Assembly (NCBI GenBank): GCA_963733195.1
Contig: CAVTCR010000062.1
Span: 378,266-442,265 of the forward strand
DNA from: an uncultured delta proteobacterium
GTDB taxonomy: Bacteria > Desulfobacterota > Binatia > Bin18
Reading direction: 5' to 3'
Length of the DNA stretch: 64,000 bases
Shown: in pieces, positions 1-26,982 of the stretch
Layout of the letters: the number at the start of each line of letters is the position of its first letter
Numbering within the stretch: the first letter of the stretch is position 1
Made by a program: the position numbers and the translations under genes
The notes under the pieces: generated by a model
Database searches by the model: none
What the model saw: only the letters and a program-made list of their open reading frames with translations
What the model was told of the DNA's origin: nothing

Positions 1-42
1 AAGAGAGAAGAAAGGATAAGGGATAAAAGGAGAAAGGCGATT

Positions 43-2726: not shown

Positions 2727-2727
2727 A

Positions 2728-4589: not shown

Positions 4590-4618
4590 CCCCGGATGTC
4601 ACGCTCGTCTGGTAAGCA
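4586..4618 (+). promoter_or_regulatory. Putative WYL operator/promoter for the cas operon: GTGAC-N7-GTCAC palindrome followed by N10-TAAGCA
   Basis: gtgaccccggatgtcac gctcgtctgg taagca; palindrome ends 25 bp before the cas3 ATG; geometry resembles DriD and PafBC sites. Confidence 0.5.
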
Positions 4619-4627
4619 ACGACAATT

Positions 4628-7339: not shown

Positions 7340-8913
7340 AGTACAGTTTCAACCTTATTGATGAACCATGGATACCGTGTGTGCTTCCCAACGGAGACGC
7401 GCTAAGAACTGAGCCTGCGTGACACGTTACTCCACGCCCATGAACTTCCGCGCCATCTTCGACCAGTCTCCTTTGGCAACGGCAGCGCTTGCATCGCTTC
7501 CTGTTAGCGATTCTCCATCGGAATTTTGGCCCGGCGTCACGCACGGAATGGAAGCAGCTTGTGGCAAGCGAAGCGATTTGATGAAGGCTCGCTCAACACA
7601 TACTTCTCCCAGTGGAAGCATCGTTTTGATCTGTTCGATGAGAACGTACCTTCCTTTTATCAAGTGGCGCAGTTCAAAACGAAGCAGAAGGAGGTCGAAA
7701 TTAACGACATCCTTCCCGAACTGTCCAGGGGGAATAATCCGACCTCTGTTCGACCACACCACGGATAAAACCTGCCTCCCTCTCAGCCCGGCAGAAGCGG
7801 CAAAAGCACTGCTCACGCTTCAAGCCTATAAACTTGGCGGTCTCAGTGGATTGGAAGCGAACTACCGTGACGCACCGAGTAGCCAGAGTCAGTCTACTTG
7901 CTTGTCCTTGGGCGGTACGCTCTTTGAAACCTTGCTCCTCAACTTTGTTTCTTACTTTGGTGATAATCCGATGCCGAAAGATAGGAAACGACGCATCCTA
8001 TATGGGAGCGAGAGGAAGCGTTGTCAACTGCCTCGCATCCGGAAGGATACCTCGACTACCTGACATGGCCGACGCTTTCCTTAGCTTTTGTTACCCGCAT
8101 CCACTTCACACGGCGGAACTGAAGTCGCCAAGACAAAGATTGCTCTTGGGCGGAATTTTCAACGTAGCCGCATCCTTGACCCAGGCTGTGCCTATTACAA
8201 AAACGCCAAAGCAAAAGCAAAAGAAGACCCCTGGCTCTTCCTTCGCTTTTGGGAACACAAGATGCTTTGGCGAGATAGCACGACTCTTCTCCGCCTTGCT
8301 GGCCAGGAAACGCGTCCGCCTCTTGCTCTGACGCAGGTGGCGCGACTTGTAAGCGATGGAATTCTTGACGCAGGCGCGCAGTATCGCTTGGCCGCCTTTG
8401 GCATTTGTCCTGACCAAGCAAGCATCATGTTCTGGCGTCAAGAACAACTTCCCCTTACCTGTTCGTTATCTTGCCGACGAAAGCTTGGTCAGAACACGTT
8501 AAGCATTGGCTCTCAGTCGTGCGGAAACGCTACAGGTAGTACGTTGCAAAGAACGATGAATCTCTTATCCAAACGTCTGCTCTATCCCAACAAGCAAGAG
8601 ACAAACCTTACAAAAGCTCAATCGGACGAAGCCGGACGCGTGGCACTGCACTTGGCCGCAAGAGAACGCTACTGGGTCTCTCTGGAAATTCCTTTTTCCA
8701 ATCTTGGCGCGAACCTTACCTGACAACTCAGACGTGGCGCTCACGGAATGGATGGAAGTACATCCGCTTAGCAGCATTGAATGCCTTCGATGAAACAACA
8801 AGCTCACTGGATCAATCAGCACGCGTGCTACGAGCAGTAGTCACGAGCCGTAGAGATACTGACCAGCAGACTGCGTTACATCCTGGAGTCTGAACAGTAG
8901 GAAAGAGAGGTGA
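7336..8913 (+). CDS. casA: Type I-E Cascade large subunit Cas8e/Cse1 (heavily frameshifted)
   Basis: FNLIDEPWIP start, RFDLFD...FYQ, LFDH, TLFETLLLN, LWRD; position after cas3. Confidence 0.85.
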
Positions 8914-8916
8914 GAG

Positions 8917-9447
8917 ATGGCAACACAAGATTGGTAGGGATGGATTTATCAAACATCTCGAAAAACTGCGCGACCAAGAGGACCGCAGAGCGCTAGCTCT
9001 TCTACGTCGGGGGCTTGGCCGTGAGCCAGGCACAGTGCCGGAGATGTACTCTCTCGTAGTCCCATGGGTTCCGGAAAATCGATATGCGGAAGATTGCCGC
9101 GTTCCTTGTTGCCGCCCTCTTTGCGTTACATCCACAATCTGGCGGGCAAAGAACGTTAGGAACCTGCGTTCGCTAACCTTCTGACGCAAGTGAAAGCATC
9201 GAGCAGACGCTTCGAACCGCGTTACTGAATTGTCATCACGGATGACCTTACTGACGTCATCTCCGTCAATCCGATAAGCCTGTTACGAAGTAAGGAAATC
9301 CCTGTCAATTGGCGACAACTGTTGCAGGACGTTCTTGGGTGGGACCATGAAAGCCGTTTCGTTCAACCGCGCCTGGGCGCGGGAATTTTGGCGTACTGTC
9401 GAGCAACCCACGAGATACGGATGAGACTAAGCGAAGAGGCCGCGTGA
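8917..9447 (+). CDS. casB: Type I-E Cascade small subunit Cse2/Cas11 (frameshifted; end approximate)
   Basis: ALALLRRGLG, AALFALHP, IPVNWRQLLQDVLGW, WAREFW. Confidence 0.8.
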
Positions 9448-9507
9448 AGAATAAATCTCGGCAATAACTGCTCAACTCTAGCTCTCAACGAAAGAAAGGA
9501 CTCTCGT

Positions 9508-10690
9508 ATGAAGATTGAACTACACCTCTTGCAAAACGTAGCCCCGGCCTGCCTCAATCGCGACGATACGAACACGCCCAAAGATTGTGAGTTTGGGGGA
9601 GTACGTCGAGCGCGGATTTCCTCGCAGTGCTTGAAGCGCTCCATCCGTACCGAGCCAATGTTCGCCAATATCCTCTATAGTGAATTAGGGCATGCGGACC
9701 AAAGGCATTGTCAGCCGCCTTGCCACACGTTTAAGCGAAACAGGCAAAGCGTACGAAGAGGCCGAAGGTGTTGCTGGTGGTTTCGTGGCTGCCGCCCTCA
9801 GCGCCCTAGATGAGAAGACCTCGAAATCGAAAGTTTTGCTCTATCTGGGAGAAGACGAAGTGCAACGTATGGCCAAAATTCTTCTTGCTCAGTATGACGT
9901 CCTGCTCGCGGCGAGTAACGAGCGGCAAAAGCAACCCCAGCAAGTGGAAAGAAGAGCAAAAGCGATCCGTTTAAGGATGCTTGTGCACAAGTGGCGAAAG
10001 GCTTTAAGAGTGGGACGAAAGCGGTCAATATCGCCCTGTTCGGTCGAATGATGGCTGAACATCCAGAAACCAATGTCGATGCCGCTTGCCAGGTCGCCCA
10101 CGCCATTTCTACCAACAAAGTCTCCATGGAAATGGATTTCTACACGGCAGTCGATGATCTCCAAAGACGATGCGGAAACCGGGGCAGGCATGATGGGGTT
10201 TACCGGCTTCAACTCCTCCTGCTTTTACCGTTATGCAGTCATCGACCTTGCCCAACTCGTCAAAAATCTCAACAACGACCTCGAACTAGCACATAATGCC
10301 GTTGAGGCATTTCTCCGCTGCATCTGTCACCGCTTCCCTGCCGCCAAGCAAAACTCGATGGCTGCGCATAATCCACCCGATGCGATCTTCGCTGTAGTTC
10401 GGGAGAATGGTGCTCCGGTATCTCTCGCTAATGCTTTTGCAAAACCGGTACGTCCCAGCCACGACAGTGACTTGATGGAAGAGTCGATTGCGCAGGCTGG
10501 ACTGACGTATTGGGGAAAATTGAGCAACCGTGTATGGTAAACATGGGGTTACAGCCAAAGCCATTTGTGTTGTTCCAGAGGTGGAACTGAAAAATCTAAA
10601 AGATGACATAAAAAGGCATCCTCTGCAGAAACGTCAGTGAAAGTCGTCAAAGATGCACTGCAAAAGATCACAAGTGGAGACCAGTCATGA
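9508..10690 (+). CDS. cas7e: Type I-E Cas7/Cse4 backbone subunit (frameshifted)
   Basis: [43 protein letters not shown]; IALFGRM; [12 protein letters not shown]; DFYTAVDD; [15 protein letters not shown]. Confidence 0.93.
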
Positions 10691-11420
10691 GATGTTATGC
10701 TACTCTGCATCTGGTTGGCCCAATGCAGTCATGGGGAACTCAAAGCCGCTTTTCAATCCGTGACACCGGGCTGGAGCCATCCAAAGAGCGGCGTCGTGCG
10801 GCTTGCTTTGCGCTGCTCTTGGGCCGCCCACGTGCCACGCCAGTAGATGACCTTGCCGCCTTACGCATGGGAGTCCGGGTAGACCGCGAGGGGCGCATGG
10901 AAAAAGATTATCACACCACCGATGGACAACGTGAGGGCACCCCCGGCCCGCGCGGAGTTCTGAAAGCCGGCGGTGGTCTTTCCTACAACGCGGTGTTGTC
11001 GACTCGCTTCTACCTCGCTGATGCCGCGTTTCTTGTTGGTCTGGAAAGCGATGACCTGAATCTTTTGCGCAAACTGGACCGCGCCCTTGCCGATCCAGTC
11101 TGGCCGCTTTTTCTCGGACGCAAGGCGTTTCCCCCAAGTTCACCTGTTCGTCTAGACTGATGGCCTACGCGAAGGAGAAAGCCTGGAAAAAGCGCTGCAT
11201 GGGTATCAACGCATTGCTACGGCGAGGCGAGGAAAATGAGAATACGCTGCTTCGCCTCGTAATGGAAACCTCCACGGGTGAGATGGTGCGTGTTGACCAA
11301 CCGCTCTCGTTTGCGACCCGTCGCTTCACCCAGCGACGAGTAACAACGGCTTGGGTTGCGGCCAACACGCTCTCCTGCAGGAAAGGAGGATCTAATGTTT
11401 CTCTCTCAGCTTACCCTTAA
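10687..11420 (+). CDS. cas5e: Type I-E Cas5 (frameshifted)
   Basis: LVGPMQSWG..SRFSIRDTGLEPSK; GVRVDREG; RFYLADAAFLVGL; P.WPLFLGRKAFPPS. Confidence 0.92.
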
Positions 11421-12030
11421 CCCTGTCATCGCGCCGTGTGCAGGACAGAAATCGGGCGTCCCTACGAGTTACATCGAACTTTGATGCGAGCGTTTCCGTC
11501 TGCTCAAGACGAAGGAAGCGACCGTGTTCTCTTTCGAGTCGAGACGAATCGCGAGACCGGAGCAATCATACTACTCGTGCAGTCAGTCCAGGAACCGAAT
11601 TGGCAACAGCCCCAGAAACCAGCACCGACTTTTCACAGGAACCGCCGAAGTGTAAGCAATTCACTCCAGTCCTTCAGAACCGGTCAACAGCTTAAATTTT
11701 CGCCTGCGTGCGAATCCAACCGTCAAACGTCAAGGCAAGCGTTTCGGGTTGATGAAAGAAGACGAACAATATGTGTGGTTACGACGAAAGGGCGAAACAG
11801 GTGGGTTCGCGCCCCTTTCAATTGTTGTCATTCCAGAGAGACAAATGGAGGACAAAAAAACAGACGATACCGGACATACTCACGATTTGACTCTGATCGC
11901 CGTTCGCTTTGATGGCGTCTTGCAGATAACCGACCTGACAACATTTAACCGGACCTTGGAGCAAGGCGTTGGGAGTGGGAAAGGATTTGGGTTTGGACTG
12001 CTCTCGGTTGCACCTAGTGAGGTGAGAGCA
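11395..12030 (+). CDS. cas6e: Type I-E Cas6 crRNA endoribonuclease (frameshifted)
   Basis: MFLSQL, PYELHRTLMRAF, RVLFRVE, LLVQS..PNW, VRFDGVLQITD, GVGSGKGFGFGLLSVA G-rich loop. Confidence 0.92.
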
Positions 12031-12928
12031 ATGCGTAGTTTACATGAACTTCCGCGATTTCGTGACCGTTGGAGCTACCTCTACCTGGAAAAAGGACGGA
12101 TGGAGGTAGACGGCAGTGGCCTGAAGTTTTCCAAAAGGGACCGAGACGGACGATATTCCAGTCCCCATCGATCAACTGGCTGTTATCATGCTCGGTCCAG
12201 GAACGACCGATTACCCACGCCGCAGTACAGATCACTCGCTCAGAACAACTGTTTACTCACCTGGACAGGCGAACAAGGGGTCCGTCTATATGCCGCCAAT
12301 ACGGGCGGGACCTTCAGTGCACGACGAATCATCCGCCAGGCTGCTTTAGTAAGCGATGAGCGGTCTCGCATCGACGTTGCCAAGCGGATGTATCAGTTTC
12401 GTTTTGCCGAGCCGCTGCCCGGAAGATGCACTCACTTGAAGTCATTCGCGGCATGGAAGGCATTCGCGTGCGCAAGGTATATGCCGAAATTGCCGACACA
12501 ATGTTTGGCGTAGAATGGAAAGGTCGGAATTATGATCAAACTGAGCTGGTCGTAACGCTGACCCGATCAATCGTGCACTATCCACTGCGACAGCATGTCT
12601 CTATGGCCTTTGTCACGCGGCCATCCTCTCGGCAGGGTATTCCCACGCTTTAGGGTTCATTCATACCGGGAAGATGTTGAGCTTCGTCTACGACATCGCC
12701 GACCTGTACAAAACTGAAATCGTGATTCCTCTCGCCTTTCGCATCGTGAGCCAGAAGCCAGAAGATCTTAGAGCGTACAGTTCGACTTGCATGTCGTGAT
12801 GCCTTTGCCGATTCACGGCTTAATGAACCGCATACTGCCTGATATCGCGGAGGTGCTTCATGCTGGTGATGATAGTCGAGAGAGTATCGACGAGTTTAAG
12901 GAACGACATTGTCACGTTGGCTCATTGA
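12031..12928 (+). CDS. cas1: Type I-E Cas1 integrase (frameshifted)
   Basis: [64 protein letters not shown]. Confidence 0.93.
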
Positions 12929-13177
12929 GCCAAGTACGGGAGTCTTCGTTGGGAATCCCAGTGCGCGAATTCGTGACGAATTGTGGAAGAAAGTCCTTGA
13001 TGAACGCCCCCGAAGGAAGCGGCCTTACAGATTTGGTCAGCGCAAACACCCGCAAGGATTCGCGTACCGGCAACATAACCCGGCGCCATACGAGAACTAG
13101 TAATTATTGAGGGCATCAACGCTCGTCCGAACTATTAACAAAGAGATATTTCCTCAATCGAAAGGAAGAAACAGTAA
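12860..13177 (+). CDS. cas2: Type I-E Cas2 (frameshifted; end approximate)
   Basis: MLVMIVERV..., [26 protein letters not shown]. Confidence 0.88.
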
Positions 13178-13224: not shown

Positions 13225-13810
13225 GTCTTCCCCACACGCGTGGGGGTGAACCGACACTGCGCTGGCATTGCAGATGTACTACAAGATGTCTTCCCCACAC
13301 GCGTGGGGGTGAACCGTGTCCGTCAGTCCTGCTAGTCGGCTTCGCTATCTGTCTTCCCCACACACGTGGGGGTGAACCGACGCCGGAGTGGGCGCGGAAA
13401 ACTGGCGCGGAAGTCTTCCCCACACACGTGGGGGTGAACCGACACTGATCGGGCTTCTATTGGCGAGGAGCGCAGTCTTCCCCACACACGTGGGGGTGAA
13501 CCGTCTTTAAGGCACATGTTCCGAACGACATTCCTGTCTTCCCCACACACGTGGGGGTGAACCGGCCGCACTCACCAGCCTGTCCGCTAGCGCCAGTCTT
13601 CCCCACACACGTGGGGGTGAACCGTCCAAGCGACTAATATCGTCGATGTCACGCTGGTCTTCCCCACGCACGTGGGGGTGAACCGCACTATCGTAGATCG
13701 GCACGGAACACGTTGACGAGTCTTCCCCACGCACGTGGGGGTGAACCGGCGACAGTAGGATGTCAGTATCAGAGATGTTTCGTCTTCCCCACGCACGTGG
13801 GGGTGAACCA
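13225..13810 (+). CRISPR. Type I-E CRISPR array: 10 repeats (29 bp, GTCTTCCCCACACGCGTGGGGGTGAACCG) and 9 spacers (31-34 bp)
   Basis: Repeats start at 13225, 13288, 13351, 13413, 13475, 13536, 13596, 13657, 13720, 13782; last repeat degenerate (ends ...AACCA). Confidence 0.98.
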
Positions 13811-13818
13811 TCAGTGAT

Positions 13819-13854
13819 AAAACTTTCCTTGTGATGCCGAAAGGCGTTGAGCAC
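13819..13854 (+). repeat. Solitary CRISPR-like repeat A, type I-B/Myxan-like
   Basis: ...CCTTGTGATGCCGAAAGGCGTTGAGCAC; 3' part matches the recalled Myxococcus/Leptospira/cyanobacterial I-B repeat family. Confidence 0.7.
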
Positions 13855-14001
13855 GAGGGATAAGTTTCTCGCTCCTGGTTTCTAGTTTCGATTTTCAGAT
13901 CGGCGTGAGCTTCTTTGAAATGTCGTGGACATCTGGATCTCTTATACCTTCGTGTGCACGGCGCACGCTACAGGATTGGTGAGCGGGGCTTTTTCTATTG
14001 A

Positions 14002-14401
14002 CTAATAGTCGTCCACTTGCAGATTCGGAATTCTGGAAGTGTCGGAGGTTTCGGGTAATAACAGTGTCGTTATCCACTAACGCTTGGGGGCCAATCAGCA
14101 GGTCCATAGTCGCAACCGTGTATCGTTGTCGCTTCAGCTCGGAAAGGATTTCCCCGTAAACCGGCGCAAAGCGTTCGTCGGGGTACACCACTTCGAACTG
14201 TTCACAAATGCGCCGTACCCTGTGGCGCTCCTCAGGGTCCTGAGAAAGTGCTACGCCAGCTTCAAGCTCGCACACCACAAAGACACTCAGTCGAACAGGA
14301 GAGTTTCCCAACTGTTGAAGCTTTTTATGCACGCGTCCTGTAACGCTACAACGCTGTTCTCGAAGGAGGTCTATAACAAAAGTAGTATCAAAGAAACTCA
14401 T
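14002..14401 (-). CDS. vapC: PIN-domain toxin VapC (C-terminal frameshift; likely ends ...IPNLQVDDY)
   Basis: FFDTTFVIDLLR, ELEAG, DLLI, TRNLRHF. Confidence 0.88.
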
Positions 14402-14631
14402 AGCCGCAGGATGCGTGCTGAATGCCGACGGCGCTCTTTGACCTGCATCTCGATCTCGTCGAGGCTTTCCTCTGTCAAGGTGAGGGAAGGCAATGCGCGT
14501 AAAAGCGCTGCGGCAGTTTTGTGCTTCCCAAAATGTTTCTTGATGACTGTCGAGAATGATTGTCCAGGTCGCTTTTGGCGAGACAAGATCTCATACGCAT
14601 CCATGTCGATAGTAATAGTCTTGACTGCCAT
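14398..14631 (-). CDS. VapB-type antitoxin (DUF217-like)
   Basis: MAVKTITIDMDAYEILSRQKRPGQSFSTVIK; ATGA overlap with vapC. Confidence 0.85.
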   Translation of the reverse strand: MAVKTITIDMDAYEILSRQKRPGQSFSTVIKKHFGKHKTAAALLRALPSLTLTEESLDEIEMQVKERRRHSARILRL

Positions 14632-14677
14632 GCGCTGAGCGTACACTGATTTTGGCCCGAAAACAACGATTATTCCT

Positions 14678-14713
14678 CGATGTCCCTTTGTGATGCCGAA
14701 AGACGTTGAGCAC
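14678..14713 (+). repeat. Solitary CRISPR-like repeat B, type I-B/Myxan-like
   Basis: ...CCCTTTGTGATGCCGAAAGACGTTGAGCAC; 23/24 identical to the core of repeat A. Confidence 0.7.
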
Positions 14714-14875
14714 TTCAGACAGAGACGAGAGATAAAGACAGAGTTGAAAGCTAGATCTGTTATCGTGCGCCTAATGAATGCTATGGAATTAGTGGACGAT
14801 GCCCACCCTACTGACTGTAGGTTCTCTAATTCATTTGTGGATTATACCGTTCATGCGTCGACTGCACCCTGCGGG

Positions 14876-14951
14876 TGGAGTTTATCCTGAGCCAGGTCGA
14901 AGGACTCAGCACGAACGGACCGCGAAAGCCGCTCGTCTTGAGCGGAGCGAA
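14876..14951. repeat. REP-like pair (GGAGTTTATCCTGAGC..GTCGAAGGACTCAG and degenerate GCTCGTCTTGAGCGGAGCGAA)
   Basis: Similarity to elements at 1591, 22770 and 51205. Confidence 0.6.
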
Positions 14952-15053
14952 GACGTGCCCGTACCCAAGAACGGCGAGGTCGTGGTTGAACAGAACAGAG
15001 GATGACTCCGTCTAATAGAAACAAACTCGCCTTCTGCTTGGGGGAAACTTGAT

Positions 15054-17372
15054 ATGAGTCTATCTCGCAGTGTCATCGTTGGCACGGTCATCTTGGTTGT
15101 TACTTTTGTTGCTCATGCCGAAGAAACCACGCAAAAGGTGGTCCCTTCCTCGGCACAACCGGTTAACAAATCAACGGAAGCGCAAATCTTCGAGAAGATC
15201 CTGGCTCAATATAACAATCTGACCTACGACCAACTCAAGGCGGAGCTAAAACCTCGCCAGTATTTAGACAAGTTATCCTTCGATCCCGCCACGGTGAAGT
15301 ATTTCGACAGAGCTGCCTCAGGATTAAAACTGAATGACCAAGAACGAGCGATCTTCAAACGCAACGGTTTTGTCTCTGTCGATCATGATCAACGCTACAG
15401 TTTTGCATCAGCCTACTACGCAATTTACACAAGAGATTTGCCTGTCCTGATCACGACTGACTCTATTCTTCATGCAATGCATCGCTCCTACGATCAGATC
15501 TTGCTCGAACTGGAGATGACCTTTTTTTCCTACACGATTGAGGAAGTCCTCACTGCTTGCCACGAAGAACTCTCTCGACTCGCAGAGCAGAATCGCAATC
15601 CTGTCCTTGTGGATCACTATCGCGATGTCGACCTCTATCTAACCGTTGCACGTAACCTTCTTGCTGGAGCAGGCGCTGACGTATCTGCTCCACCAGACCC
15701 CAGCGGAGAGCAGGAAATGGATGAATGGAAAGGATACCTACTCGTTACGTCGAAAATGGAGCAAGATGCCAAGGTCTTAGAGATTCTTAGCCCCGTCCGT
15801 TCATTAACGCTGCAAACACCAGGGCTTCCGCTCACAACCATTTATGGCGGTGAGCGTTCCATTGATTACTCACAGTTTCGTCCTCGTGGTCATTACACTA
15901 AGGCGACAATCTTAAAGCGATATTTCCGTACTATGATGTGGATCGGACGGGCAGATTGTGGTTGGAATATCAACTCGGATCGCGAACTCGGAAACGCTGT
16001 CCTGTTGGTTGAATTGCTCACAAAAACCAACAGCATCAAACGGATTCAAACGCTTGATGACCTTATCACCTTCATGGTCGGCAGAAGTGATAACCTGCGC
16101 ATCTTTGACTTGCTCAGGATCATGCAGGATCACCAGCTCACCACACTCGGAGACATTACGAATGTAGCCACGCGAGAGCTACTCAAAAAGGCGATTGCGT
16201 CAGGAGCGTATGGCCAACAACGGATTCGCTCTCAGGTTATGAAGTCTTTCCCTGACGTGCCAGAGAAGGTCGCACCTCCACAGATTTTCCAGTTATTCGG
16301 TCAGCGCCTTGTCATCGACTCGTTCCTGTTATCGCAGGTCGTCTTCGATTCCATCGTCTATCAAGGAAAGAAGGTTCAGCGCTTTATGCCTACAGGGCTC
16401 GATGTCATGGCTGCGTTGGGGAACACCGAAACCATTCCGCTCCTGGCTGCTGAGCTGACACAGTATCCGTACAGTGCGAACCTGAAGGCAGGCCAAGTGT
16501 TTGTGGGTCTCTATGATCCCGACTTTTGGCGCGAGAATCTGTATAACATCTGGCTCGACGCATTACGCATACTTGACGATGACATGACGCAACAAAAGCA
16601 CTTTCCCCAAATTATGCGTACTCAGACATGGCAGATGAAACAACTACAAACACAGCTGGCCTCTTGGGCTGAGCTACGTCACGATACGATTTTGTATGCA
16701 AAGCAATCCTATACTGCCTTCGCGGTGTGCGAGTACCCAACCGGGTACGTGGAACCCTACCCTCACCTTTATGCCAAGGTAAAAGATTTTGCCAAAGAAA
16801 CAGTGCGGCTTTTGGAGAAAATCGACTTTTCTTCTCCCAATGCCCAGAAATACGGCGAACTAGGCCTAATGAAAATGCGACAGCTCGCTTTCCTAAACAC
16901 GATGACGGGTCACCTTGGTCAACTTGAAAAATTAGCGCAAAAGGAACTCATGGCCCAACCATTCACTTCTGAGGAGCAACTGTTTCTGAAGAAGACGATT
17001 GATGCCCGCGGGGGGGGAAGTGGCGGACCCAATTATGACGGTTGGTACTGTGATCTTTTCTATGGAGGTGAGTATGCGGCGATGAAATGGGACCCCACCA
17101 TCGCTGACGTACATACGGACCCGAATAGTGGGCAAGTCTTAGAAGTGGGCGTTGGGGATGCCAATTTTCTGGTTGCCGCGATTGACAACGAAGAGGATCA
17201 TCTGGTCTATGTCGGCCCGATGTTCTCGTATTACGAATTCACACAACCAGCAAGTAAACGCCTTACCGATGAAGAATGGCAGAATAAGATCTCTAACAAC
17301 ATGTTGCCACCACGACCAACATGGACTTCTTCATTCCAAGGACCTCGGCAGAAACGCGAGGCCGGACGGTGA
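15054..17372 (+). CDS. DUF3160 domain-containing secreted protein
   Basis: Signal peptide; LPVLITTDSILH, DYSQFRPRGHYT, LASWAELRHDTILYAKQSY, GYVEPYP, IADVHTD, GPMFSYYEF, RLTDEEW. Confidence 0.92.
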   Translation: MSLSRSVIVGTVILVVTFVAHAEETTQKVVPSSAQPVNKSTEAQIFEKILAQYNNLTYDQLKAELKPRQYLDKLSFDPATVKYFDRAASGLKLNDQERAIFKRNGFVSVDHDQRYSFASAYYAIYTRDLPVLITTDSILHAMHRSYDQILLELEMTFFSYTIEEVLTACHEELSRLAEQNRNPVLVDHYRDVDLYLTVARNLLAGAGADVSAPPDPSGEQEMDEWKGYLLVTSKMEQDAKVLEILSPVRSLTLQTPGLPLTTIYGGERSIDYSQFRPRGHYTKATILKRYFRTMMWIGRADCGWNINSDRELGNAVLLVELLTKTNSIKRIQTLDDLITFMVGRSDNLRIFDLLRIMQDHQLTTLGDITNVATRELLKKAIASGAYGQQRIRSQVMKSFPDVPEKVAPPQIFQLFGQRLVIDSFLLSQVVFDSIVYQGKKVQRFMPTGLDVMAALGNTETIPLLAAELTQYPYSANLKAGQVFVGLYDPDFWRENLYNIWLDALRILDDDMTQQKHFPQIMRTQTWQMKQLQTQLASWAELRHDTILYAKQSYTAFAVCEYPTGYVEPYPHLYAKVKDFAKETVRLLEKIDFSSPNAQKYGELGLMKMRQLAFLNTMTGHLGQLEKLAQKELMAQPFTSEEQLFLKKTIDARGGGSGGPNYDGWYCDLFYGGEYAAMKWDPTIADVHTDPNSGQVLEVGVGDANFLVAAIDNEEDHLVYVGPMFSYYEFTQPASKRLTDEEWQNKISNNMLPPRPTWTSSFQGPRQKREAGR

Positions 17373-17387
17373 ATCGTCCGAAGTTCC

Positions 17388-17419
17388 GTAGGTTGTGCAG
17401 AAGCGAAGCGTTGCCCAAC
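17388..17419. repeat. GTAG-type REP element
   Basis: GTAGGTTGTGCAGAAGCGAAGCGTTGCCCAAC imperfect hairpin. Confidence 0.55.
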
Positions 17420-17594
17420 AATCAGTAGCGCATGGGGTTTGGCACGAGCAGTTCAATCTACGGAGATCATTCTCCATCTCTCTTCATGTCTCCCTCGCAC
17501 GTCGAGGACTAAGAGTCGAGAATAGTCTTCAGTGCGTGGTTCCGCTCCCCCCTCCACCAGTTATTCGCGTGTGGATATCGCGCGTTAGCTCTCA

Positions 17595-18544
17595 GAGGCT
17601 CTCCGGAAACCTTTATGCAGCCGCAGCATAGCGAAATTCACGCTGGGCCGATGGAGCAAGTTTGCGCAGCATCAAGTGAATGTTGCTCAGTTGGATCATG
17701 GCAGCGGCAGATTCTGGCTTGCGCTCATAGTCCTTGCGGTTGCGTCGCGCCCGGCCATTCCACGCCTTCGTGCGCTCCACCACCCAGCGTTTACGTACAG
17801 GCGTAACCCCCGTGCTGCCTGCTGGCCGGGCCTTCCCCTCGATTCTCCAGCCCGGCCGCTTCTTCGTCAGCCACTCTTCGAGCGCCTGATGGTGATACTT
17901 GGTATCGCCAAAGATCGTCGGCAGGCGGGGACCGTCTGGCACGCTGATTTGCGCAAGTACCATTGCCGCCGCGACCCCCTCATCGACCTGTGCCCTCGTA
18001 ATCACGACAGCCATGAGTAACCCCAGGGTATCCACCAGCAAATGCCGCGTGCGACCCTTGATTTTCTTCCCCCCGTCATAACCGCGTTCCTTGCCGCCGA
18101 TCTCGGTGGTCTTCACCGATTGACTCTCGATGCACGCGGCACTGGGAGTGGACTCCCGCCCCGCTTCCCGACGCACCCGCTCCCGCAAGGCCGTCAGAAT
18201 CTTGCTCCCAGTTCCCTCCTCGCGCCACTGCGCAAAATAGTCATAGCCGCTACTTTTGGCCAGCAAGTCCTGCGGCCGCCTCTCCCCTTGGCAGCCACTG
18301 CGGTTCAGATACAAGAGCGTGTTGAGTACCTCGCGCCTGTCGAGTTCCCGGGGGCGGCCTCCCCGAGTGTAGCGGGGGGCGGGAATCAGAGGTTCTATGA
18401 TTGCCCATTGAGCATCCGTGAGATCCGAAGGATACGCCTTCCGCTTTTCATGCTCCTCCGCCATCCTTGCTCCCTCCTATGCTTGCTCAATGTTGCCCTC
18501 CCTCTTACCACATCTTTTGCCAAAATCAGTTTCCGGAGAGCCTC
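17595..18544 (-). mobile_element. IS5-family (IS1031-like) insertion sequence
   Basis: Perfect inverted repeats GAGGCTCTCCGGAAAC / GTTTCCGGAGAGCCTC; flanks TCA and TAA (TNA-type). Confidence 0.9.
17613..18464 (-). CDS. IS5 family transposase (degenerate residues)
   Basis: YPSDLTDAQW, GYDGGKKIKGR.RHLLVDTLG, KRWVVERT; canonical IDSQS appears as IESQS. Confidence 0.9.
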   Translation of the reverse strand: MAEEHEKRKAYPSDLTDAQWAIIEPLIPAPRYTRGGRPRELDRREVLNTLLYLNRSGCQGERRPQDLLAKSSGYDYFAQWREEGTGSKILTALRERVRREAGRESTPSAACIESQSVKTTEIGGKERGYDGGKKIKGRTRHLLVDTLGLLMAVVITRAQVDEGVAAAMVLAQISVPDGPRLPTIFGDTKYHHQALEEWLTKKRPGWRIEGKARPAGSTGVTPVRKRWVVERTKAWNGRARRNRKDYERKPESAAAMIQLSNIHLMLRKLAPSAQREFRYAAAA

Positions 18545-18875
18545 TAACATGCGTGCCGTGAGCGCTTGCGATTCGAGCAGCATGGTTGCAAGCGCTCTCG
18601 TGCTGTCCGCCACGACTTGCGCGATCCGCTCCTGTCCTTGCGCGATCCGCTCCTGTCCCCTGTGCAATCTGCTCTTGCCCTTGGGCGATTCGTTCTTGTC
18701 CCTGCTGGAGCCGTTCCTGTCCTTTGCTGATCTCACTCAATGCCACGATGGTTGCCTGGTTCTGTCGTTCTTGTCGCTCGGACGATTGTTGTAGCCACGC
18801 AACAAGCTGGGCATTCCCTTCACGCATTTCGGCTGCGAGCGTCAGAATTGCCTCAGTTGTACTAGTTCGTGCCAT
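18545..18875 (-). CDS. Small coiled-coil protein with GQERIAQ heptad repeats, 3' end cut by IS5
   Basis: About five 21-bp tandem units at ~18620-18725; AAAGGA RBS upstream. Confidence 0.6.
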
Positions 18876-18939
18876 GTACGTTGTTCCTTTCTAATAAGAG
18901 ATTTTTAGCGCGTGACATTGTCGTGGGCAATCTCTTTTT

Positions 18940-18972
18940 AGGCGTTGAGCACTTCAGACAGAGGCGAGCGAT
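18940..18972 (+). repeat. Partial I-B-like repeat C plus 20 nt shared with the sequence after repeat B
   Basis: AGGCGTTGAGCACTTCAGACAGAGGCGAGCGAT vs 14701-14733 AGACGTTGAGCACTTCAGACAGAGACGAGAGAT (30/33 identical). Confidence 0.75.
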
Positions 18973-19112
18973 CAAATCGTGCATGTAACTCTTTTCCTAC
19001 CTCGTTACCATCTATCCTAAAGTAGTCCCTCCTGGGCTCGATACTTCCCAAAGCAGTCACCAAACATCTCCGTATCGTTTTGCTTGGTGGAGTACGGAAA
19101 AGGGGGAATTTC

Positions 19113-19961
19113 ATGCAACGTCTCTTCGCTTTTGCGGTCACTACTACACTGTGGTTGTCCACATCGTGGGCGCTAGCCGAGTTTTCCACATCGATTATGA
19201 AACCGACACCAGTAGATGCCAATGGCGTCATTAGTGCACCGTTCCCTAGCGGTGGGCAAAGCACCTTGTATTATTTTTCTGTTGAGGCGCAACCTGGTGA
19301 TCTCCTCACGCAGATCTCTTATCAAGGACGGGCCAGAGCGGATAAACAGTTAGAACTGTCGCTGATCAACGAGAATGGTAAGCAAGGCAACTCGTACTGG
19401 ATTCATGGGTCTGATCCCATAGCAGAGGGAACTCGGAGCTTTCCTATCGACAAAAAAGGACGGCAGATAGTTCGCCTCGCTGTGCGAGGCCCTGAAACAG
19501 GGCAATTTCGAGTCGAGTTAGGTGGAACTGCTGTCAGTGGCGCGACACCCAAAAGTCCGCAACTTCACAATGGGTTTTCTCGCTCTATCTTCATACCTAC
19601 TCAGGTTGGCAATGATGGCGTAATTAGCGGTTCACTACCTGGAACTGAGGCACCAGCCGTCTACTATTTCGTCGTCAACGCTAAGGCAGGAGAGCTGCTC
19701 ACACAAATTTCTTACGAAGGGCGTGACGGAGCCCATAAAGAACTCACCCTGCGACTGCTAGGACCTGATGCGCGAAGTGCCCAATGGTACTGGATTCACG
19801 GTTCTGATCCCAAGAAGAATCAACTCGTAGTTTCCCAATCGATTCGGCCGGGCGCAAGGTGTTTTGTATCGAGGTTGCTGGACCGGCAACCGGAACCTTC
19901 CGTGTTGAGTTGGGAGGCTCTGCTTTCGTCAGTAATAATGCAGATAAGAAAGCGCCAGTGA
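19113..19961 (+). CDS. Secreted hypothetical protein with two tandem beta-rich domains (C-terminal frameshift)
   Basis: Signal peptide; repeated PT.V...GVIS, YYF.V.A..G.LLTQISY.GR, YWIHGSDP. Confidence 0.7.
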   Translation: MQRLFAFAVTTTLWLSTSWALAEFSTSIMKPTPVDANGVISAPFPSGGQSTLYYFSVEAQPGDLLTQISYQGRARADKQLELSLINENGKQGNSYWIHGSDPIAEGTRSFPIDKKGRQIVRLAVRGPETGQFRVELGGTAVSGATPKSPQLHNGFSRSIFIPTQVGNDGVISGSLPGTEAPAVYYFVVNAKAGELLTQISYEGRDGAHKELTLRLLGPDARSAQWYWIHGSDPKKNQLVVSQSIRPGARCFVSRLLDRQPEPSVLSWEALLSSVIMQIRKRQ

Positions 19962-20276
19962 CGACGAGTCAGGCAGCACGTTAGTAGTCGGTCAAACGAT
20001 TCTGGTGAGTACGAGTCTGACCGACAGCCTCCTCTTTCACATCAGTGCGCAACCATAGAATCGTCGGGTCGAGATTGTCATTGATACCTGCGATCGCACA
20101 GCCAATGCGGGCAAGTAAGCGAGACGACAAGACATGGATCCGAAGACCGGACCGTCGTCCTTGCTCATTATCTCTCCAGTCTAACCTGCCCTTTGATAGA
20201 AGAGGGAACCTTAAATCCATCATTGAGAACACGAGAGCTTTTGGCTATTGTGCCCCCGGAAAAGGGAGGTCTTGTC

Positions 20277-21368
20277 GTGGCTCAACGTTCTTACCCTCCA
20301 ACAGAAACCATACGCCTCGGGTTCTGGGCTCCCGTGTACGGCAACTGGATCTTCTCGAAGCATCCAGCAACACACAATGCGTCGTTCGATTATACTCGTC
20401 GATTGACAACGCTCGCTGAGGAGATCGGTTTCGCTACCCTGCTCCTTGCCGAGCACACGTTTAATCCATTCGACGCAGAAAGTGATCAGCTCGAAACCTG
20501 GACCTCAACCGCTGGTCTCGCCACCATCACCAAACACATTGAGTTAATGCCTGCGGTACGACCCACGTTTAAGCATCCAGTGCTGACAGCCAAAATGGCA
20601 GGCAACATCGATCAGATGAGCGGCGGACGGATGGCGATCAATCTCGTCTCCGGCTGGTGGCAAAAAGAAAGTGATGCCATGGGAATCCCAAGTCTTCCCC
20701 ATGACGATCGCTATCAACGTTCGGAGGAGTATCTCACGATTCTCAAGGGTTTGTGGACGCAACCGCACTTCAGTTTCTCTGGTCAGTATTATCAAGTGAA
20801 CGATGTCACGCTTGCCCCACTACCAGTGCGTAAACCACACCCGCGCATTTATCTCGGTGGAGAGTCTGATATTGCCCAGCGTTTGGCTGCTAAATTAGCT
20901 GACGACTATCTTATCAATGGCCGTCCGGTTGAAGAAGTAAAGCAATTGATCGACCATATCCGGCCGTATGCGGCTGAATCTGGGCGCCGCTTGCAGTTTG
21001 GTATCAGTGCGTTTGTCATTTGCCGCAAGACTGAAGAAGAGGCGTGGAAAGAACACGCGCGCCTCCACTCCATACGCGCGGAAGAGATGATCCCAGGTGT
21101 CGATCGTAAAGTTACGATGATCCGTACTTATGCGTATCGCGCCGGTGCAGTCGGCTCGAACGGTGGCACTGATGCAGGCCTGGTTGGCACACCACAACAG
21201 ATCGCTGATCGCCTGCGTGCGTTTCACGATATCGGAGTGACGACGTTTCTCCTACAATTTCACCCGATGTTAGAAGAGATGCAACGGTTCGGTGAGGAAG
21301 TTGTGCCGCTGTTAGAAAAAGCCAACGTGTGGCAACATCCGGCTCGCAGCGAGGCGCGTCATGTTTGA
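20277..21368 (+). CDS. LLM-class flavin-dependent monooxygenase (SsuD/SfnG-like)
   Basis: AEEIGF, AKMAGNIDQMSGGRMAINLVSGW, IYLGGES, GLVGTPQQIA. Confidence 0.9.
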   Translation: MAQRSYPPTETIRLGFWAPVYGNWIFSKHPATHNASFDYTRRLTTLAEEIGFATLLLAEHTFNPFDAESDQLETWTSTAGLATITKHIELMPAVRPTFKHPVLTAKMAGNIDQMSGGRMAINLVSGWWQKESDAMGIPSLPHDDRYQRSEEYLTILKGLWTQPHFSFSGQYYQVNDVTLAPLPVRKPHPRIYLGGESDIAQRLAAKLADDYLINGRPVEEVKQLIDHIRPYAAESGRRLQFGISAFVICRKTEEEAWKEHARLHSIRAEEMIPGVDRKVTMIRTYAYRAGAVGSNGGTDAGLVGTPQQIADRLRAFHDIGVTTFLLQFHPMLEEMQRFGEEVVPLLEKANVWQHPARSEARHV

Positions 21369-21488
21369 TATCTCGGTCCTTCCACAGTTAATCCGTCATG
21401 ATAGTGAATACTTCCACAGTGGCTCGCCAGAGGAACAGGAACGACGGCAACGTCAGCTCGTGGCTGATAACGAAGTCTTACTGAAACC

Positions 21489-21656
21489 ATGCTGGAGGGA
21501 ATGCGGCACAACGCTGAACGCTTCTTGATAGAGAAACTCGGCCTTGATCCGTCGGTAATGGAAGCATTTGCCCATATTCCTGAGCGTACCCGGTTCATCT
21601 ACCGCACGATTGGTATTGAAGAGAGCAATTGGCCGTTATGGTTGAAGGCGGCATAA
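21489..21656 (+). pseudogene. Short ORF, probably a C-terminal gene remnant
   Basis: MLEGMRHNAERFLIEKLGLDP...WPLWLKAA*; upstream sequence blocked by stops. Confidence 0.3.
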
Positions 21657-21671
21657 CACAGGAGGGACACC

Positions 21672-22724
21672 ATGAGAGCGTTGGTATTTCTTGGCGTAGG
21701 CAAAGTCGGGGTTGTTGAAAAACCAATCCCTGATCCTGGCCCCAATGATGCTGTAGTGAAAACGACGGCGTCACTTATTTGCACTTCCGATGTGCATACC
21801 GTGCGTGGTGTCATTGAAATCCCTAGCGGTCGGGGTCTCGGACATGAAAGTGTTGGCGTTGTGTCCAAGGTCGGTGCAAACGTCACCCGTTGTAAAGAAG
21901 GGGATCGTGTTGCGGTCTGCGCCATTACTCCCTGTGGACACTGTGAGAACTGTCAACGCGGTTTTACCTCACAATGTGGTGGGATGTTGGGTGGCTACAA
22001 ATACACCACGCAACGCGACGGTAATCTCTCCGAGTATTTCTTCGTCAACGATGCGGACTATAACCTCGCGCCCATTCCCAAGTCGTTGAGTGACGAACAA
22101 GCCGCGTATACGACAGATATGTTAACAACTGGTTTGGCCGGGGCTGAAAATGCCGAGATCCCTCCCGGTGGAACAGTAGCAGTTTTTGCGCAAGGACCCG
22201 TCGGTCTTGCGTCGACTATGATGTCGCGCCTTTTAGGTGCCGGGTTAGTGATCGCTGTCGAGTCCAAACCCGACCGTAAGGCATTGGCAAAGAAACTGGG
22301 GGCCGATGTTGTAGTTGATCCTACCCAAGGTGATGTCGTCGAGCAGATTCGTCAGCTCACCGGAGGTGAAGGAGTTGATTCTGCGATTGAGGCACTTGGT
22401 CATCCAGTGACGTTTGAGAATTGCATTAAGGCCACGCGACCAGGTGGGGTGATCTCGAACGTTGGTTACCATGGTGAGGCTGGGAATACTTTACAAATCC
22501 CACTACCGGACTTCGGCCTTGGCATGGGAGACAAGCAGATTCGCACGGCACTGTGCCCCGGTGGGCGCGAGCGGATGATGCGTTTACTGCGACTCTTGGA
22601 GAGTGGTCGAATTGATCCGACGCCGATGACCACCCATCGTTTTCCGTTTTCACAAGTTGAGCGGGCGTTTCAGATGATGGAAACGAAAGAAGATAACATC
22701 GTGAAACCGTTGATTACGTTCTAG
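21672..22724 (+). CDS. Zn-dependent NAD(P) alcohol dehydrogenase (secondary ADH-like)
   Basis: ICTSDVH, GHESVG, CGHCENCQRGFTSQC, QGPVGL, LCPGGRERM. Confidence 0.92.
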   Translation: MRALVFLGVGKVGVVEKPIPDPGPNDAVVKTTASLICTSDVHTVRGVIEIPSGRGLGHESVGVVSKVGANVTRCKEGDRVAVCAITPCGHCENCQRGFTSQCGGMLGGYKYTTQRDGNLSEYFFVNDADYNLAPIPKSLSDEQAAYTTDMLTTGLAGAENAEIPPGGTVAVFAQGPVGLASTMMSRLLGAGLVIAVESKPDRKALAKKLGADVVVDPTQGDVVEQIRQLTGGEGVDSAIEALGHPVTFENCIKATRPGGVISNVGYHGEAGNTLQIPLPDFGLGMGDKQIRTALCPGGRERMMRLLRLLESGRIDPTPMTTHRFPFSQVERAFQMMETKEDNIVKPLITF

Positions 22725-22752
22725 TGGATGACCATGGAAATTTTGAGTAGGG

Positions 22753-23012
22753 AAAGATTGCTTCGTCGCGGAGTTTATCCTGAGCGTGTCGAAGGGCTCC
22801 GCGCAATGACAGCCCTCCTTGTCATTGCGAGTTATCCATAGCGCAGTACGCTAAGCATGGAGGCAGAAACTGGATGCGCCTGAATTCCGGGTCTCGCGGT
22901 GCTCGCCCGGAATGACGGGTATGTCGTCTGCGTCATTCCAGCGCAAGCTGGAATCCAGGGGGCAGTGGGCGGAGCATTTTGTTTCTGAGCAGCGCAACGA
23001 AGCAATCTCCCC
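22753..23012. repeat. Nested cluster of REP-like palindromes
   Basis: AGATTGCTTCG...GCAATGAC/GTCATTGCGAG...CGAAGCAATCTC; CCCGGAATGACG / CGTCATTCCAGCGCAAGCTGGAATCC. Confidence 0.75.
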
Positions 23013-23070
23013 GCGCGATCACAGACTGACCTGTCAAAATCTCTGTGGTCGACCACTAGGGTGAAGATCG

Positions 23071-23484
23071 CTATGTCTGGACTGGCATAAACACCGGCAC
23101 CCAGATCTCCTCCGTCACCTTTCGCAACTGAATTTCCCCTTCCAAGCCAATCACGACAGATTCCACTGGACACTCGACCACTTGCAGGACCATACGCACT
23201 CCTTCAGCGAGATCGACAAGTGCGACGGCATAAGAAATTTCGCCGGTATATGCCGGATGAAATGCACGGTGATAGACCACGAAGCTGTGAATAGTCCCGC
23301 GACGTGACACAGGAAGCCAGCGGGATTCGAGCGATCCGCAGCGTGAACACACCAGGACAGGTGGATAACGCCAGGATTCACAGGAAGTGCACCGCTGGAG
23401 CAACAGTTGACCACGTCGACAGCCGTCCCAGAACGGTGCGGAATCGGGAGTGATGATAGGAAGCGGTTGCAAAATAGCAGGCAT
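23071..23484 (-). CDS. Zn-ribbon/OB-fold protein (DUF35, ChsH2-like)
   Basis: PFWDG..GQLLLQRCTSC...CSRCGS; ALVDLAEGVRM. Confidence 0.9.
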   Translation of the reverse strand: MPAILQPLPIITPDSAPFWDGCRRGQLLLQRCTSCESWRYPPVLVCSRCGSLESRWLPVSRRGTIHSFVVYHRAFHPAYTGEISYAVALVDLAEGVRMVLQVVECPVESVVIGLEGEIQLRKVTEEIWVPVFMPVQT

Positions 23485-23573
23485 AAGGAAAAATCTATAG
23501 TTGTTGAGTGATACCTGTTACGTGATTCGTGGTGCGTGGTGCATTTTCTACATCACGTTCCACGCCTCACGTT

Positions 23574-24742
23574 TTACGTCGTCCCCAAGAGTAGGGTGGC
23601 ATGCGCGGCCAACACTCCAGCACCACCACTGACGAGACCGACTTGAGCGTTCGGCACTTGCCGTACTCCAGCCTGGCCGCGTAACTGTTTCACTGCTTCA
23701 GTCACATGCAAAATACCATCAGCGTGTGCTTGTGAGAGTAATCCTCCGTGTGTATTCACCGGAAGTTCTCCTCCCAAGCCGATGCGTCCACCTTCGACAA
23801 AGGAACCGCCTTCACCTTTGGCGCAAAAGCCGTAATCTTCTAATTGCACTAAAACCGTGTACGTAAACGAATCGTACAGTTCGGCGAAATCAATATCCCG
23901 GCACGACACGCCTGCCATTTGTAATGCAGATGGTCCAGATTTAACTGCTCCACAGGATGTGACGTCTTCGTCTTGCATTAGATAACGATGGGGATGCGAT
24001 TCTCCATACCCGAGAACAGCCACCGGCTTCTGCGGCAGATCGAAGCTGCACGTTCATGTTGTCGTCACGATAAACGCCCCACCGTAATCGGAAACGAGCG
24101 AGCAATCAGGCAAGCGGAACGGCTCGACGATCCACGGAGCAGCGGAAGGTAATCGTCAAGTGTGAGCGGTTTACGTATTTGCGCATTATCAGTCAACAAT
24201 GCATGCTGTCGCTGCATAACAGCGATCATTCCTAATTGTTCAGGCGTCGTCCCATAGCGATGCATGTGTCGTTTCGCCGCAAGTGCATATCCCGCCGGTG
24301 GACCGATCAAGACCAAACGGTTCTTCCCAGTCTTCGTACCCCCAATGCAATTTGCCGTGTGTTGGATGAGGGGACTTATTGTAGCTCAACCAGTTCTCAC
24401 CAAAGGCAACAAGTACGGTGTGACACACATCGGCTTCGATAGCTCGCGCTGCCTCGGCCAAGGGCAAGAATTGGCGTACATCCACCGACATGCAGATCAT
24501 GGCCATAACGCAATCGTAATCCCCAAGGGACTCGGCCAAGCTGATCAGTAAAGAGAAACGTTGGCTCTTGATAGGGAGCCTTGCTGAGGCAACCATCAAT
24601 GTCTCTGAGTGTGAGTCCCGGCATCTAGCAAAGCACGTGAGACTGATTGCACAGTCAAGGACATACTGGTGCTGTTCGGCACTAAGCCAAGCGTACTTTC
24701 TCCAATGCCAACGATGCAAATGTGTGGATGACTACGTACCAT
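23574..24742 (-). CDS. Thiolase-like / lipid-transfer (SCP-x, Ltp2-like) protein, frameshifted
   Basis: CIVGIGES, YALAAKRHMHRYGTT, AELYDSFT, GELPVNTHGGLLS, EAVKQLRG. Confidence 0.85.
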
Positions 24743-24931
24743 TCCTTCTCCGTCCGGTTGTTGCTCGTGCGCATGGTGCACGCTACTGAGCTGGGTTCAG
24801 CATCCTGCGCCCCTACAAGACGGCGCTCCGGCAAGGTTTGTTTCCCTCTTGTCCTTCTCGTGAGCGGTCAGTATCGTATGGTTCCGTACCATCCGCAGGT
24901 ATATCCAGCAAGATGTAGGAAGGAGGACTTC

Positions 24932-26161: not shown

Positions 26162-26167
26162 ACGACA

Positions 26168-26800: not shown

Positions 26801-26982
26801 ACTTCACTCACAAATACATACAAACGAATGGTATCCGGATGCATGTAGTCGAAGCTGGCAGCGGGTTTCCTGTGCTCTTATGCCACGGGTTTCCTGAGTT
26901 ATGGTACTCCTGGCGGCACCAACTCAAGGAGAAGCCCGTAGAGGTGAATGCGGCGTTGTTGGAGTTTTTGCGGGAGTTCTGA
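26797..26982 (+). pseudogene. Internally deleted epoxide-hydrolase-like alpha/beta hydrolase
   Basis: N-terminus ([28 protein letters not shown]) joined directly to C-terminus ([14 protein letters not shown]). Confidence 0.8.

Follow-up and report, generated by a model that had tools for sequence, protein, structure and literature searches.

We present here an analysis of a 64,000-nt stretch of DNA from an uncultured delta proteobacterium (hereafter the window), with the focus on three copies of a clustered regularly interspaced short palindromic repeat (CRISPR) sequence lying just downstream of a CRISPR array of another type. The genome of this organism (G000) is a 6.95-Mb assembly of 87 contigs with a completeness of 93%, and it is compared within a set of 61 related genomes in which it is itself counted. 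Among them, G001 (84% complete) and G002 belong to the same genus, G010 belongs to another genus of the same family, and G029 is a complete genome. In the left part of the window lies a type I-E cas operon from cas3 to cas2 (4616-13110, + strand), followed by a type I-E array of ten 29-nt repeats (13225-13810, + strand), the last of which is degenerate at its final base. Beyond this array, the original prediction placed copies of a different repeat at 13831-13854, 14690-14713 and 18940-18952; all three are found in place, and the gap of 20 nt before the first is likewise correct, since the last I-E repeat ends at 13810. Traced to their recognisable length, the copies, all on the + strand, are R1 (13819-13854, nearly full length, starting 8-12 bases past the last I-E repeat), R2 (14688-14713, recognisable only in its 3' 26 nt) and R3 (18940-18952, the last 13 nt of the repeat). 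Between R1 and R2 lies a vapBC toxin-antitoxin module (13999-14656, - strand), and between R2 and R3 a block of 4.2 kb (14737-18939).

The three copies stand out clearly from the background. The conserved 3' core of the repeat, a 22-mer at 13833-13854, recurs at 14692-14713 with one mismatch, giving two matches at up to three mismatches while none is expected from 100 shuffles. The shorter 12-mer GGCGTTGAGCAC is found at 13843, at 14702 (one mismatch) and at 18941, that is three matches against 0.50 expected, a number reached in 1 of 100 shuffles. Across the whole 6.95-Mb assembly the 22-mer, again at up to three mismatches, occurs at R1 and R2 only. Allowing up to six substitutions in a 24-mer search of the genome, 13 matches are obtained, 11 of them lying beyond R1 and R2 with five or six mismatches, and no partial repeat of this kind is found at the contig ends of the assembly. 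The motif search asked for by the original prediction thus shows the motif to be unique to the copies in the window, and the idea of a repeat dispersed over the genome was dropped.

The repeat belongs to the type I-MYXAN family, as R1 and R2 have 22/22 and 21/22 identities to array repeats of the relatives. G029 carries an array of the same repeat immediately after a leader and a complete I-MYXAN cas operon, with the order Cas6/Cmx6 (TIGR02807, 218 bits), Cas3, Cas8a1/Cmx1, Cas7/DevR, Cas5/DevS, a Cas4-Cas1 fusion (cas1_MYXAN, 516.6 bits) and Cas2, which bears out the assignment to the I-B/Myxan family made from the sequence of the window. The Rfam family CRISPR-DR33 matches R1 on the + strand with 28.2 bits, under the gathering score of 39. 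According to Table 5 of PMC4758666, this repeat family is also present in Leptospira genomes scoring for the Myxan subtype. Among the related genomes, searched at up to three mismatches, the 22-mer is found in 30 of 61, and in many of these the repeats are arrayed with a period of 70-75 nt; a control with the reversed pattern gives 6 matches in 5 genomes. From the orientation of the array relative to the cas operon in G029, the sense of the repeat is ...GATGCCGNAAGGCGTTGAGCAC, on the + strand of the window. A leader-like motif conserved ahead of the first repeats in relatives agrees with this sense, and so does the loop of the repeat, which varies among relatives as GAAA, GTAA, GCAA and GGAA. 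The sense proposed earlier, with a handle ending in ...GAGCAC, is therefore supported by the cas operon, by the position of the leader and by the hairpin in relatives.

Compared with the 36-nt repeat, the copies are degenerate or truncated, as is typical of relic or orphan arrays: R1 retains 31 of the 36 positions, R2 27 and R3 13, with unequal loss at the 5' side. R1 is identical at 31/36 positions to the second repeat of G001, with all 24 of its 3' nucleotides unchanged; its first 3-4 nt are replaced and two changes are found at positions 10-11. The predicted hairpin of R1 is more stable in the + sense (-8.5 kcal/mol) than in the - sense (-4.0 kcal/mol). R2 is seen in the repeat scan as a 26-nt match at 96%, and keeps 23/24 of the 3' part and 4/12 of the 5' part. 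A G>A change in R2 breaks a C-G pair of the stem, and the canonical hairpin is absent from the predicted minimum free energy fold. The same G>A is present in the terminal repeat of the intact G029 array, which fits the view that R2 was once a repeat at the trailer end. R3 is recovered by the 12-mer search, the repeat scan and the alignment alike. Nor do the copies show the regular spacers of about 35 nt and the leader of a functional array: their spacings are 859 and 4239 nt, their 5' parts are lost, and what lies upstream of R1 is the I-E array and no leader.

The evidence that carries the interpretation comes from the same chromosomal site in relatives. In G002, contig C87 holds Cas4-Cas1, Cas2, a leader of about 250 nt, an array of 20 repeats, the last of which is 3'-truncated, and a trailer of about 110 nt, followed by orthologs of the window genes at 19113-19961, 20193-21368 and 21672-22724 and then by further genes; homology by blastn and tblastx covers the window segments 19162-19843, 20237-21340, 21651-22723, 24920-26159 and 26216-26924. 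The window DNA to the right of R3 aligns with the trailer of this array. After a stretch of spacer length (about 37 nt), the region 18953-19112 (+ strand) continues as trailer DNA, as aligned with the sequence after the last repeat of G002, and leads to a conserved downstream gene with its ATG at 19113 and an open reading frame (ORF) to 19961 (+ strand), in synteny with C87. In G010 the locus is spread over two contigs: C101 has homologs of window 1-4600, then Cmx6, the remaining operon and an array reaching the contig end, while C64 opens within the array, after which come vapB, vapC and the counterparts of window 20304-26743. A WYL regulator gene adjoins cmx6 in G029, G010 and G002. The site is bounded on the left by the WYL regulator, and on the right by a secreted-protein gene, a luciferase-like monooxygenase and an alcohol dehydrogenase. 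In the window, the HTH-WYL-WCX regulator remains at 2334-4586 (+ strand), split into 2334-2621 and 4031-4586, as identified by tblastn and tblastx against orf341 of G029 (61-71% amino acid identity); Pfam reports WYL on 4010-4615, and WYL, WCX and HTH on the G029 protein. The splitting element is an insertion sequence (IS) of the ISAzo13 family at about 2622-4030, with DDE_Tnp_ISAZ013 on 2809-3699(-) and 3278-3940(-), the transposase lying in two frames.

Because the same flanking genes enclose an intact I-MYXAN array and cas operon in G002 and G010, we interpret the three copies as a relic array. Three options had been offered originally, namely integration sites for gene cassettes like those of an integron, regulatory solitary-repeat RNAs, and a relic I-B/Myxan array disrupted by insertions. 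The synteny with G002 and G010 demonstrates the last, and a normal array at this site in relatives is what the original prediction had itself listed as evidence that would refute it.

What remains in the genome is consistent with the loss of the system. With the seven Cas proteins of G029 as tblastn queries, no match is found in the own genome for Cmx6, Cmx1, Cas7/DevR or Cas5/DevS, and all Cas1 matches are below the MYXAN cut-off. The statement that I-B cas genes are lacking in the window is correct. Profile searches of the genome with TIGR02807, TIGR02586 and TIGR03485 also give no match, where the last two are silent in the control genomes too and the power rests on the annotation of the G029 operon. 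A simple repeat scan detects five CRISPR arrays in the genome (C14, C28, C51, C62 and C73), and none of them is of the MYXAN type. On the whole, neither a cognate Cas6 nor effector genes are found in the 93%-complete assembly; with no Cas6/Cmx6 and no Cascade found to use them, the repeats appear to be decaying and doing nothing today.

The type I-E cassette spans from the end of the WYL gene to the first bases of R1, and therefore occupies the place taken in the relatives by the I-MYXAN operon, the leader and the greater part of the array. Type I-E Cas7 was found in 12 of the 61 genomes and in neither of the two further members of the genus, a distribution which fits a cassette that was probably acquired horizontally. 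The cassette is itself pseudogenised, with partial NCBIfam matches and frame breaks: the matches cover positions 361-806 of 878 in Cas3, 207-321 of 325 in Cas7 and 3-160 of 230 in Cas5e, Cas6e is spread over two frames, one of which is fused to Cas1e (2-127 of 269), and Cas7 has two matches in different frames with two TGA and one TAA inside. ORFs of at least 250 aa cover 9-41% of window 1-12000, compared with 62% genome-wide and 59-100% in window 16-56 kb; given the latter, the low coverage reflects local decay and not poor sequence. Farther left, at window 1-1500, a gene which is in a single frame on contig C101 of G010 is read in at least three frames (tblastx 59-265, 267-746, 745-1083 and 1316-1492), therefore the decay reaches left of the CRISPR locus. 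Elsewhere in the genome, the Cas1 genes of two CRISPR loci, on C51 and C73, are broken over two and four frames, suggesting that the decay of CRISPR-Cas is wider in this organism.

The block between R2 and R3 explains why the third copy is only a short piece. It is flanked by a direct duplication of 33-36 nt, of which the left arm (14701-14736, + strand) consists of the last 13 nt of the repeat and the next 23 nt, and the right arm begins with R3. By the repeat scan and the alignment, 14701-14736 and 18940-18975 are identical at 32/36 positions, and the flanks beyond have no similarity; the original prediction had not mentioned that the likeness of R2 and R3 continues past the repeat. The block itself is delineated by Pfam, by inverted repeats and by homology to relatives, and is absent in G002 between the array and the downstream gene. 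On its right end, homology to a repeat-free locus of G018 extends up to about 18942, i.e. the left side of R3. As the left side of R3 is thus that of the repeat-free G018 locus and the right side is the spacer-length stretch and trailer, R3 is not an independent array repeat; judged from these alignments, it is the right arm of the direct duplication around the block, which combines the final 13 nt of the repeat with 23 nt of the last spacer. A deleted 5' repeat half to the left of R3 was considered and ruled out, the sequence there being homologous to the repeat-free locus. The predicted 4.2-kb block between repeats exists; what does not hold is its reading as a spacer-like unit between two array repeats, since the right half repeat belongs to the duplication made by the insertion.

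Among the genes of the block is a DUF3160 gene (15054-17372, + strand; Pfam 1.7e-157). It is preceded by a dispersed element of about 135 nt (14818-14952), which resembles a repetitive extragenic palindromic (REP) sequence or a miniature inverted-repeat transposable element (MITE); a copy lies at G000:C62:286535-286668, and copies with 70-94% identity occur in many genomes of the family. A second, short dispersed element of about 37 nt (17388-17424) has copies with 89-94% identity in G005 and G008. It is followed by an IS of the IS5 family (17594-18545) with perfect 17-nt inverted repeats at its termini and a transposase at 17613-18464 (- strand; DUF4096 and DDE_Tnp_1). This IS breaks a small gene starting at 18875 (- strand), which is uninterrupted in G018:C40, and deleting the IS from the window restores continuity with that gene. 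At 18616-18721, within the broken gene, four tandem-like copies of a 21-nt repeat are found, with the same period in the G018 homolog; this suggests that the gene would encode a repetitive, coiled-coil-like protein.

The interval between R1 and R2 contains, as predicted, a complete vapBC operon, with vapC on the ORF 13895-14401 and vapB at 14398-14646, both on the - strand, and with PIN (2.2e-09) and VAPB_antitox (6.4e-13) domains in Pfam. The homology to G010 and to seven metagenome contigs is limited to 13999-14656 (about 660 bp). Within the 55 genomes of the family, the VapC subfamily is present in two only, G000 and G010. In G010, vapBC begins 38 nt past the last repeat of the array. The locus is syntenic with that of the window, but relative to the repeats the module faces the opposite way. 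An inverted repeat left between vapB and R2, as in G010, was considered and rejected, for only 5-6 nt agree. The VapC ORF of the window passes the point where translation stops in G010 and in the relatives from metagenomes, giving about 36-43 extra codons of unrelated sequence (13895-14023). In addition, a low-depth contig of a public soil run (X2) joins 14054 to 14429, which would remove most of vapC; this contig without 14055-14428 may come from a strain variant or from another organism.

Putting these observations together, the three copies are very probably non-functional remnants of a type I-MYXAN array formerly present at this site, and stem from its distal (trailer) end. In the scenario we propose, a horizontally acquired I-E cassette would have taken the place of the I-MYXAN cas genes, together with the leader and the repeats nearest to it, either in one step or by insertion and then deletion, and what survived would have been one or two terminal repeats with the last spacer and the trailer. 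The 4.2-kb DNA with the DUF3160 gene and the small gene, joined later by the IS, would then have entered the junction of the last repeat and the last spacer and duplicated 33-36 nt, which would be the origin of the half repeat at 18940. As for vapBC, it most likely lay at the distal end of the array already in an ancestor, as it does in G010, and would have come to its present inverted position between R1 and R2 via a local rearrangement.

Relics of this kind are not limited to the window. In G001, two repeats and one spacer lie upstream of the same monooxygenase, with no Cmx6 found in that genome, and the neighbours of this relic are HigA, an HNH-like ORF and a mobile pair of TcmP and radical-SAM genes. 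Single repeats are left in G004 and G005 as well, on the left or the right flank of the syntenic site. Overall, the 61 genomes include 30 with the 22-mer, 15 with Cmx6 and 14 with both, the last having 3-70 copies of the 22-mer. One genome has Cmx6 without an assembled repeat, and 16 have the 22-mer, in 1-4 copies, without Cmx6, where one or two single matches are possibly due to chance. With orphan repeats and no Cmx6 in 16 of the 61 genomes, the loss of I-MYXAN appears to be frequent in the family.

Solitary repeats of other settings are also observed among the relatives. In G025 and G021, both having Cmx6, a full-length solitary I-MYXAN repeat is found at about 1487-1522 of the locus with both flanks conserved, 11-16 nt upstream of the start of a gene for an oxidoreductase-like protein with a twin-arginine translocation (Tat) signal, at or just before the ribosome-binding site and far from cas genes. 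It may represent a true Cas6 site within an mRNA. In G033 and G028, where Cmx6 is not found, a strong and conserved hairpin whose loop is TTCG comes immediately after the core of a solitary repeat, past position 1522 of the locus.

Several points weigh against the interpretation as remnants. In their 3' 24 nt, R1 and R2 show hardly any change, with 0 and 1 differences, and this can be read as selection; on a rough estimate, the conservation is not significant, for the duplicated arms differ at 4/36 positions, by which about 1.4 changes are predicted per copy of 24-26 nt, against the 0 and 1 found. At a completeness of 93%, the assembly leaves some room for an I-MYXAN module that is missing from it. 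The search for relics in other genomes used the 3' 22-mer and is thus biased to relics retaining that part. Compared with G010, the vapBC of the window is inverted relative to the repeats and is flanked by them on both sides, which needs an extra rearrangement. Finally, a target duplication of 33-36 nt is unusual for ordinary insertions.

The alternative that survives best, itself improbable, is that the repeats or their 3' half serve as landing or recombination sites and capture gene cassettes in an integron-like way, by homologous recombination or by a CRISPR integrase. Direct copies including the 3' end of the repeat do flank both units, with 26 nt at vapBC and 33-36 nt at the 4.2-kb block, where the length of the duplication is near the 36 nt of the repeat; a proposal that repeat-like units could mediate recombination into arrays is on record in the review PMC8616872. 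In addition, G010 has a vapBC of this subfamily next to a MYXAN repeat, yet this association is not independent, since it concerns the same syntenic locus. A scan of genome contigs with a single protein finds none, while an alignment-based scan finds seven vapBC loci, of which one has the repeats and the other six (6/6) have not. Thirteen further loci come from metagenomes, and the 22-mer at up to four mismatches is found in 0 of 13; seven of them are 71-84% identical to the window, closer than G010, and whereas several of the metagenome contigs are short (1.1-2.7 kb), all seven close ones span the equivalent of the R2 region upstream of vapB. A general link between vapBC and the repeat was thus dropped, the repeats being absent from 19/19 other loci, and vapBC is, by its occurrence, a discrete toxin-antitoxin module that turns up in many contexts. 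In relatives, the homologs of DUF3160 and those of the small gene likewise lie away from any repeat, so none of these genes travels with the site elsewhere. Moreover, Pfam on the ORFs of 13811-19961 gives a transposase of the IS5 family only, and no integrase or recombinase is found in 13811-18972 save this one, which breaks a gene inside the block. The copies are cut off at three different positions, the two units are oppositely oriented, each with its own upstream region, and the motif is found nowhere else in the genome. With no recombinase, with sites cut differently and with cassettes unlinked to them elsewhere, the first of the original options fails.

It is still less likely that the solitary repeats encode regulatory RNAs like CRISPR RNA, of the CreA/crlRNA or Racr type, that guide or titrate a Cas effector. 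Regulatory standalone repeats and mini-arrays are described as widespread in type I loci, some of them controlling toxin-antitoxin cargo (Shmakov et al. 2023). It is also in favour of this idea that R2 is located upstream of vapB, about 40 nt from its start and on the opposite strand, and that the 3' hairpin and handle are the best-preserved part of R1 and R2. On the other hand, no cognate Cas6 or Cascade is found, and the adjacent system is of type I-E, whose repeat is unrelated and whose cas genes are dead. Compared by blastn-short with the genome and with the I-MYXAN cas loci of relatives, the 38 nt past each copy have no meaningful match. The matches obtained are mostly exact stretches of 13-15 nt, with one AG-rich match of 25/28 at E 0.036, all at the level of chance; a spacer-like segment complementary to a cas or cargo promoter is hence not seen, and anti-cas or regulatory targets of these pseudo-spacers were sought in both sets and dropped. 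In 13700-19200, a promoter scan restricted to sites of the sigma-70 type finds 0, where 3.4 are expected in shuffles. The G>A of R2 breaks the hairpin, and the arrangement is not conserved within the genus, G001 and G002 being different. Lacking an effector, a target, a promoter-like site and conservation at the genus level, the regulatory option has little left to recommend it, and the reading of R1-R3 as remnants of an array is retained.

The unusual length of the block duplication calls for one more consideration. Integration of a spacer by Cas1-Cas2 duplicates one repeat length. We therefore consider it conceivable, at a similarly low probability, that the CRISPR integrase of Cas4-Cas1/Cas2, before the system was lost, inserted kilobase-sized DNA off-register at the last repeat, and perhaps vapBC between R1 and R2 in the same manner. 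The evidence in support is the match in length (33-36 nt against the 36-nt repeat) and the position at the repeat, and nothing else. If true, such an insertion would be a natural casposon-like act of a genuine CRISPR adaptation complex.

The least probable of all is an assembly artefact with chimeric joins at short repeats in a metagenome-style assembly, which would fit with the 87 contigs and with the difficulty of assembling CRISPR regions, where arrays break contigs in G002 and G010, but is opposed by the short length of the copies (13-36 nt) with unique flanks, by the smooth homology of G018 and G002 up to either side of R3, and by contigs of two public soil runs that bridge R2, X1 over 14541-14773 with 10 differences and X2 over 14585-14733 with 4 (one of the two runs could be the source sample, their shares are small, 0.07 and 0.05, and the contigs listed bridge R2 and not R1 or R3).

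The locus can finally be compared with known systems. In integrons, cassettes are genes lying between attC sites, which are short structured repeats. The window is similar in having genes between copies of a short structured repeat, but differs in having no integrase and no common promoter or orientation, and in having sites truncated differently and cassettes which are unlinked to the site elsewhere. It also resembles RNA anti-CRISPRs (Racrs) and the solitary repeat units of viruses, the latter treated in PMC8616872, in that single CRISPR repeats lie outside an array; unlike them, the copies have no phage or plasmid context, and no system of the same type to be inhibited was found in the host. 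With crlRNA and CreA of CreTA (Shmakov et al. 2023), the locus shares isolated repeats within a CRISPR-cas locus, one of which is beside a toxin-antitoxin pair. It differs from what is described there, for neither an effector nor a partly complementary target was found, close relatives do not share the arrangement, and the neighbouring I-E system has repeats of another type. The similarity to type I-MYXAN arrays (cas6_cmx6, cas5_cmx5_devS, cas1_MYXAN) lies in the 36-nt repeat with its conserved 3' 22 nt, its GNRA-type loop and its ...GAGCAC end, whereas the copies of the window are truncated and are without regular spacing, leader or cognate cas genes found.

The closest likeness is to orphan or relic arrays, where the cognate cas genes are gone and a few degenerate repeats are left at a conserved site which holds the full system in relatives. 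A comparable case, described in PMC8616872, is that of E. coli lineages which lost the I-F cas genes and kept a small array. Unlike in the known relic, no anti-cas spacer was found at the window copies in the 38-nt search, the lost operon has been replaced by a I-E system which has itself decayed, and the repeats are separated by a toxin-antitoxin module and a 4.2-kb insertion instead of spacers. A caution follows for other loci, in that isolated repeats of a foreign type beside an array can mimic a new cassette or regulatory system, while here the synteny explains them as decay. The locus is thus a further instance of a known phenomenon, the relic array after cas loss, and an example of turnover at a CRISPR hotspot in an uncultured soil lineage, from I-MYXAN to I-E to pseudogenes, with toxin-antitoxin modules and IS moving in.

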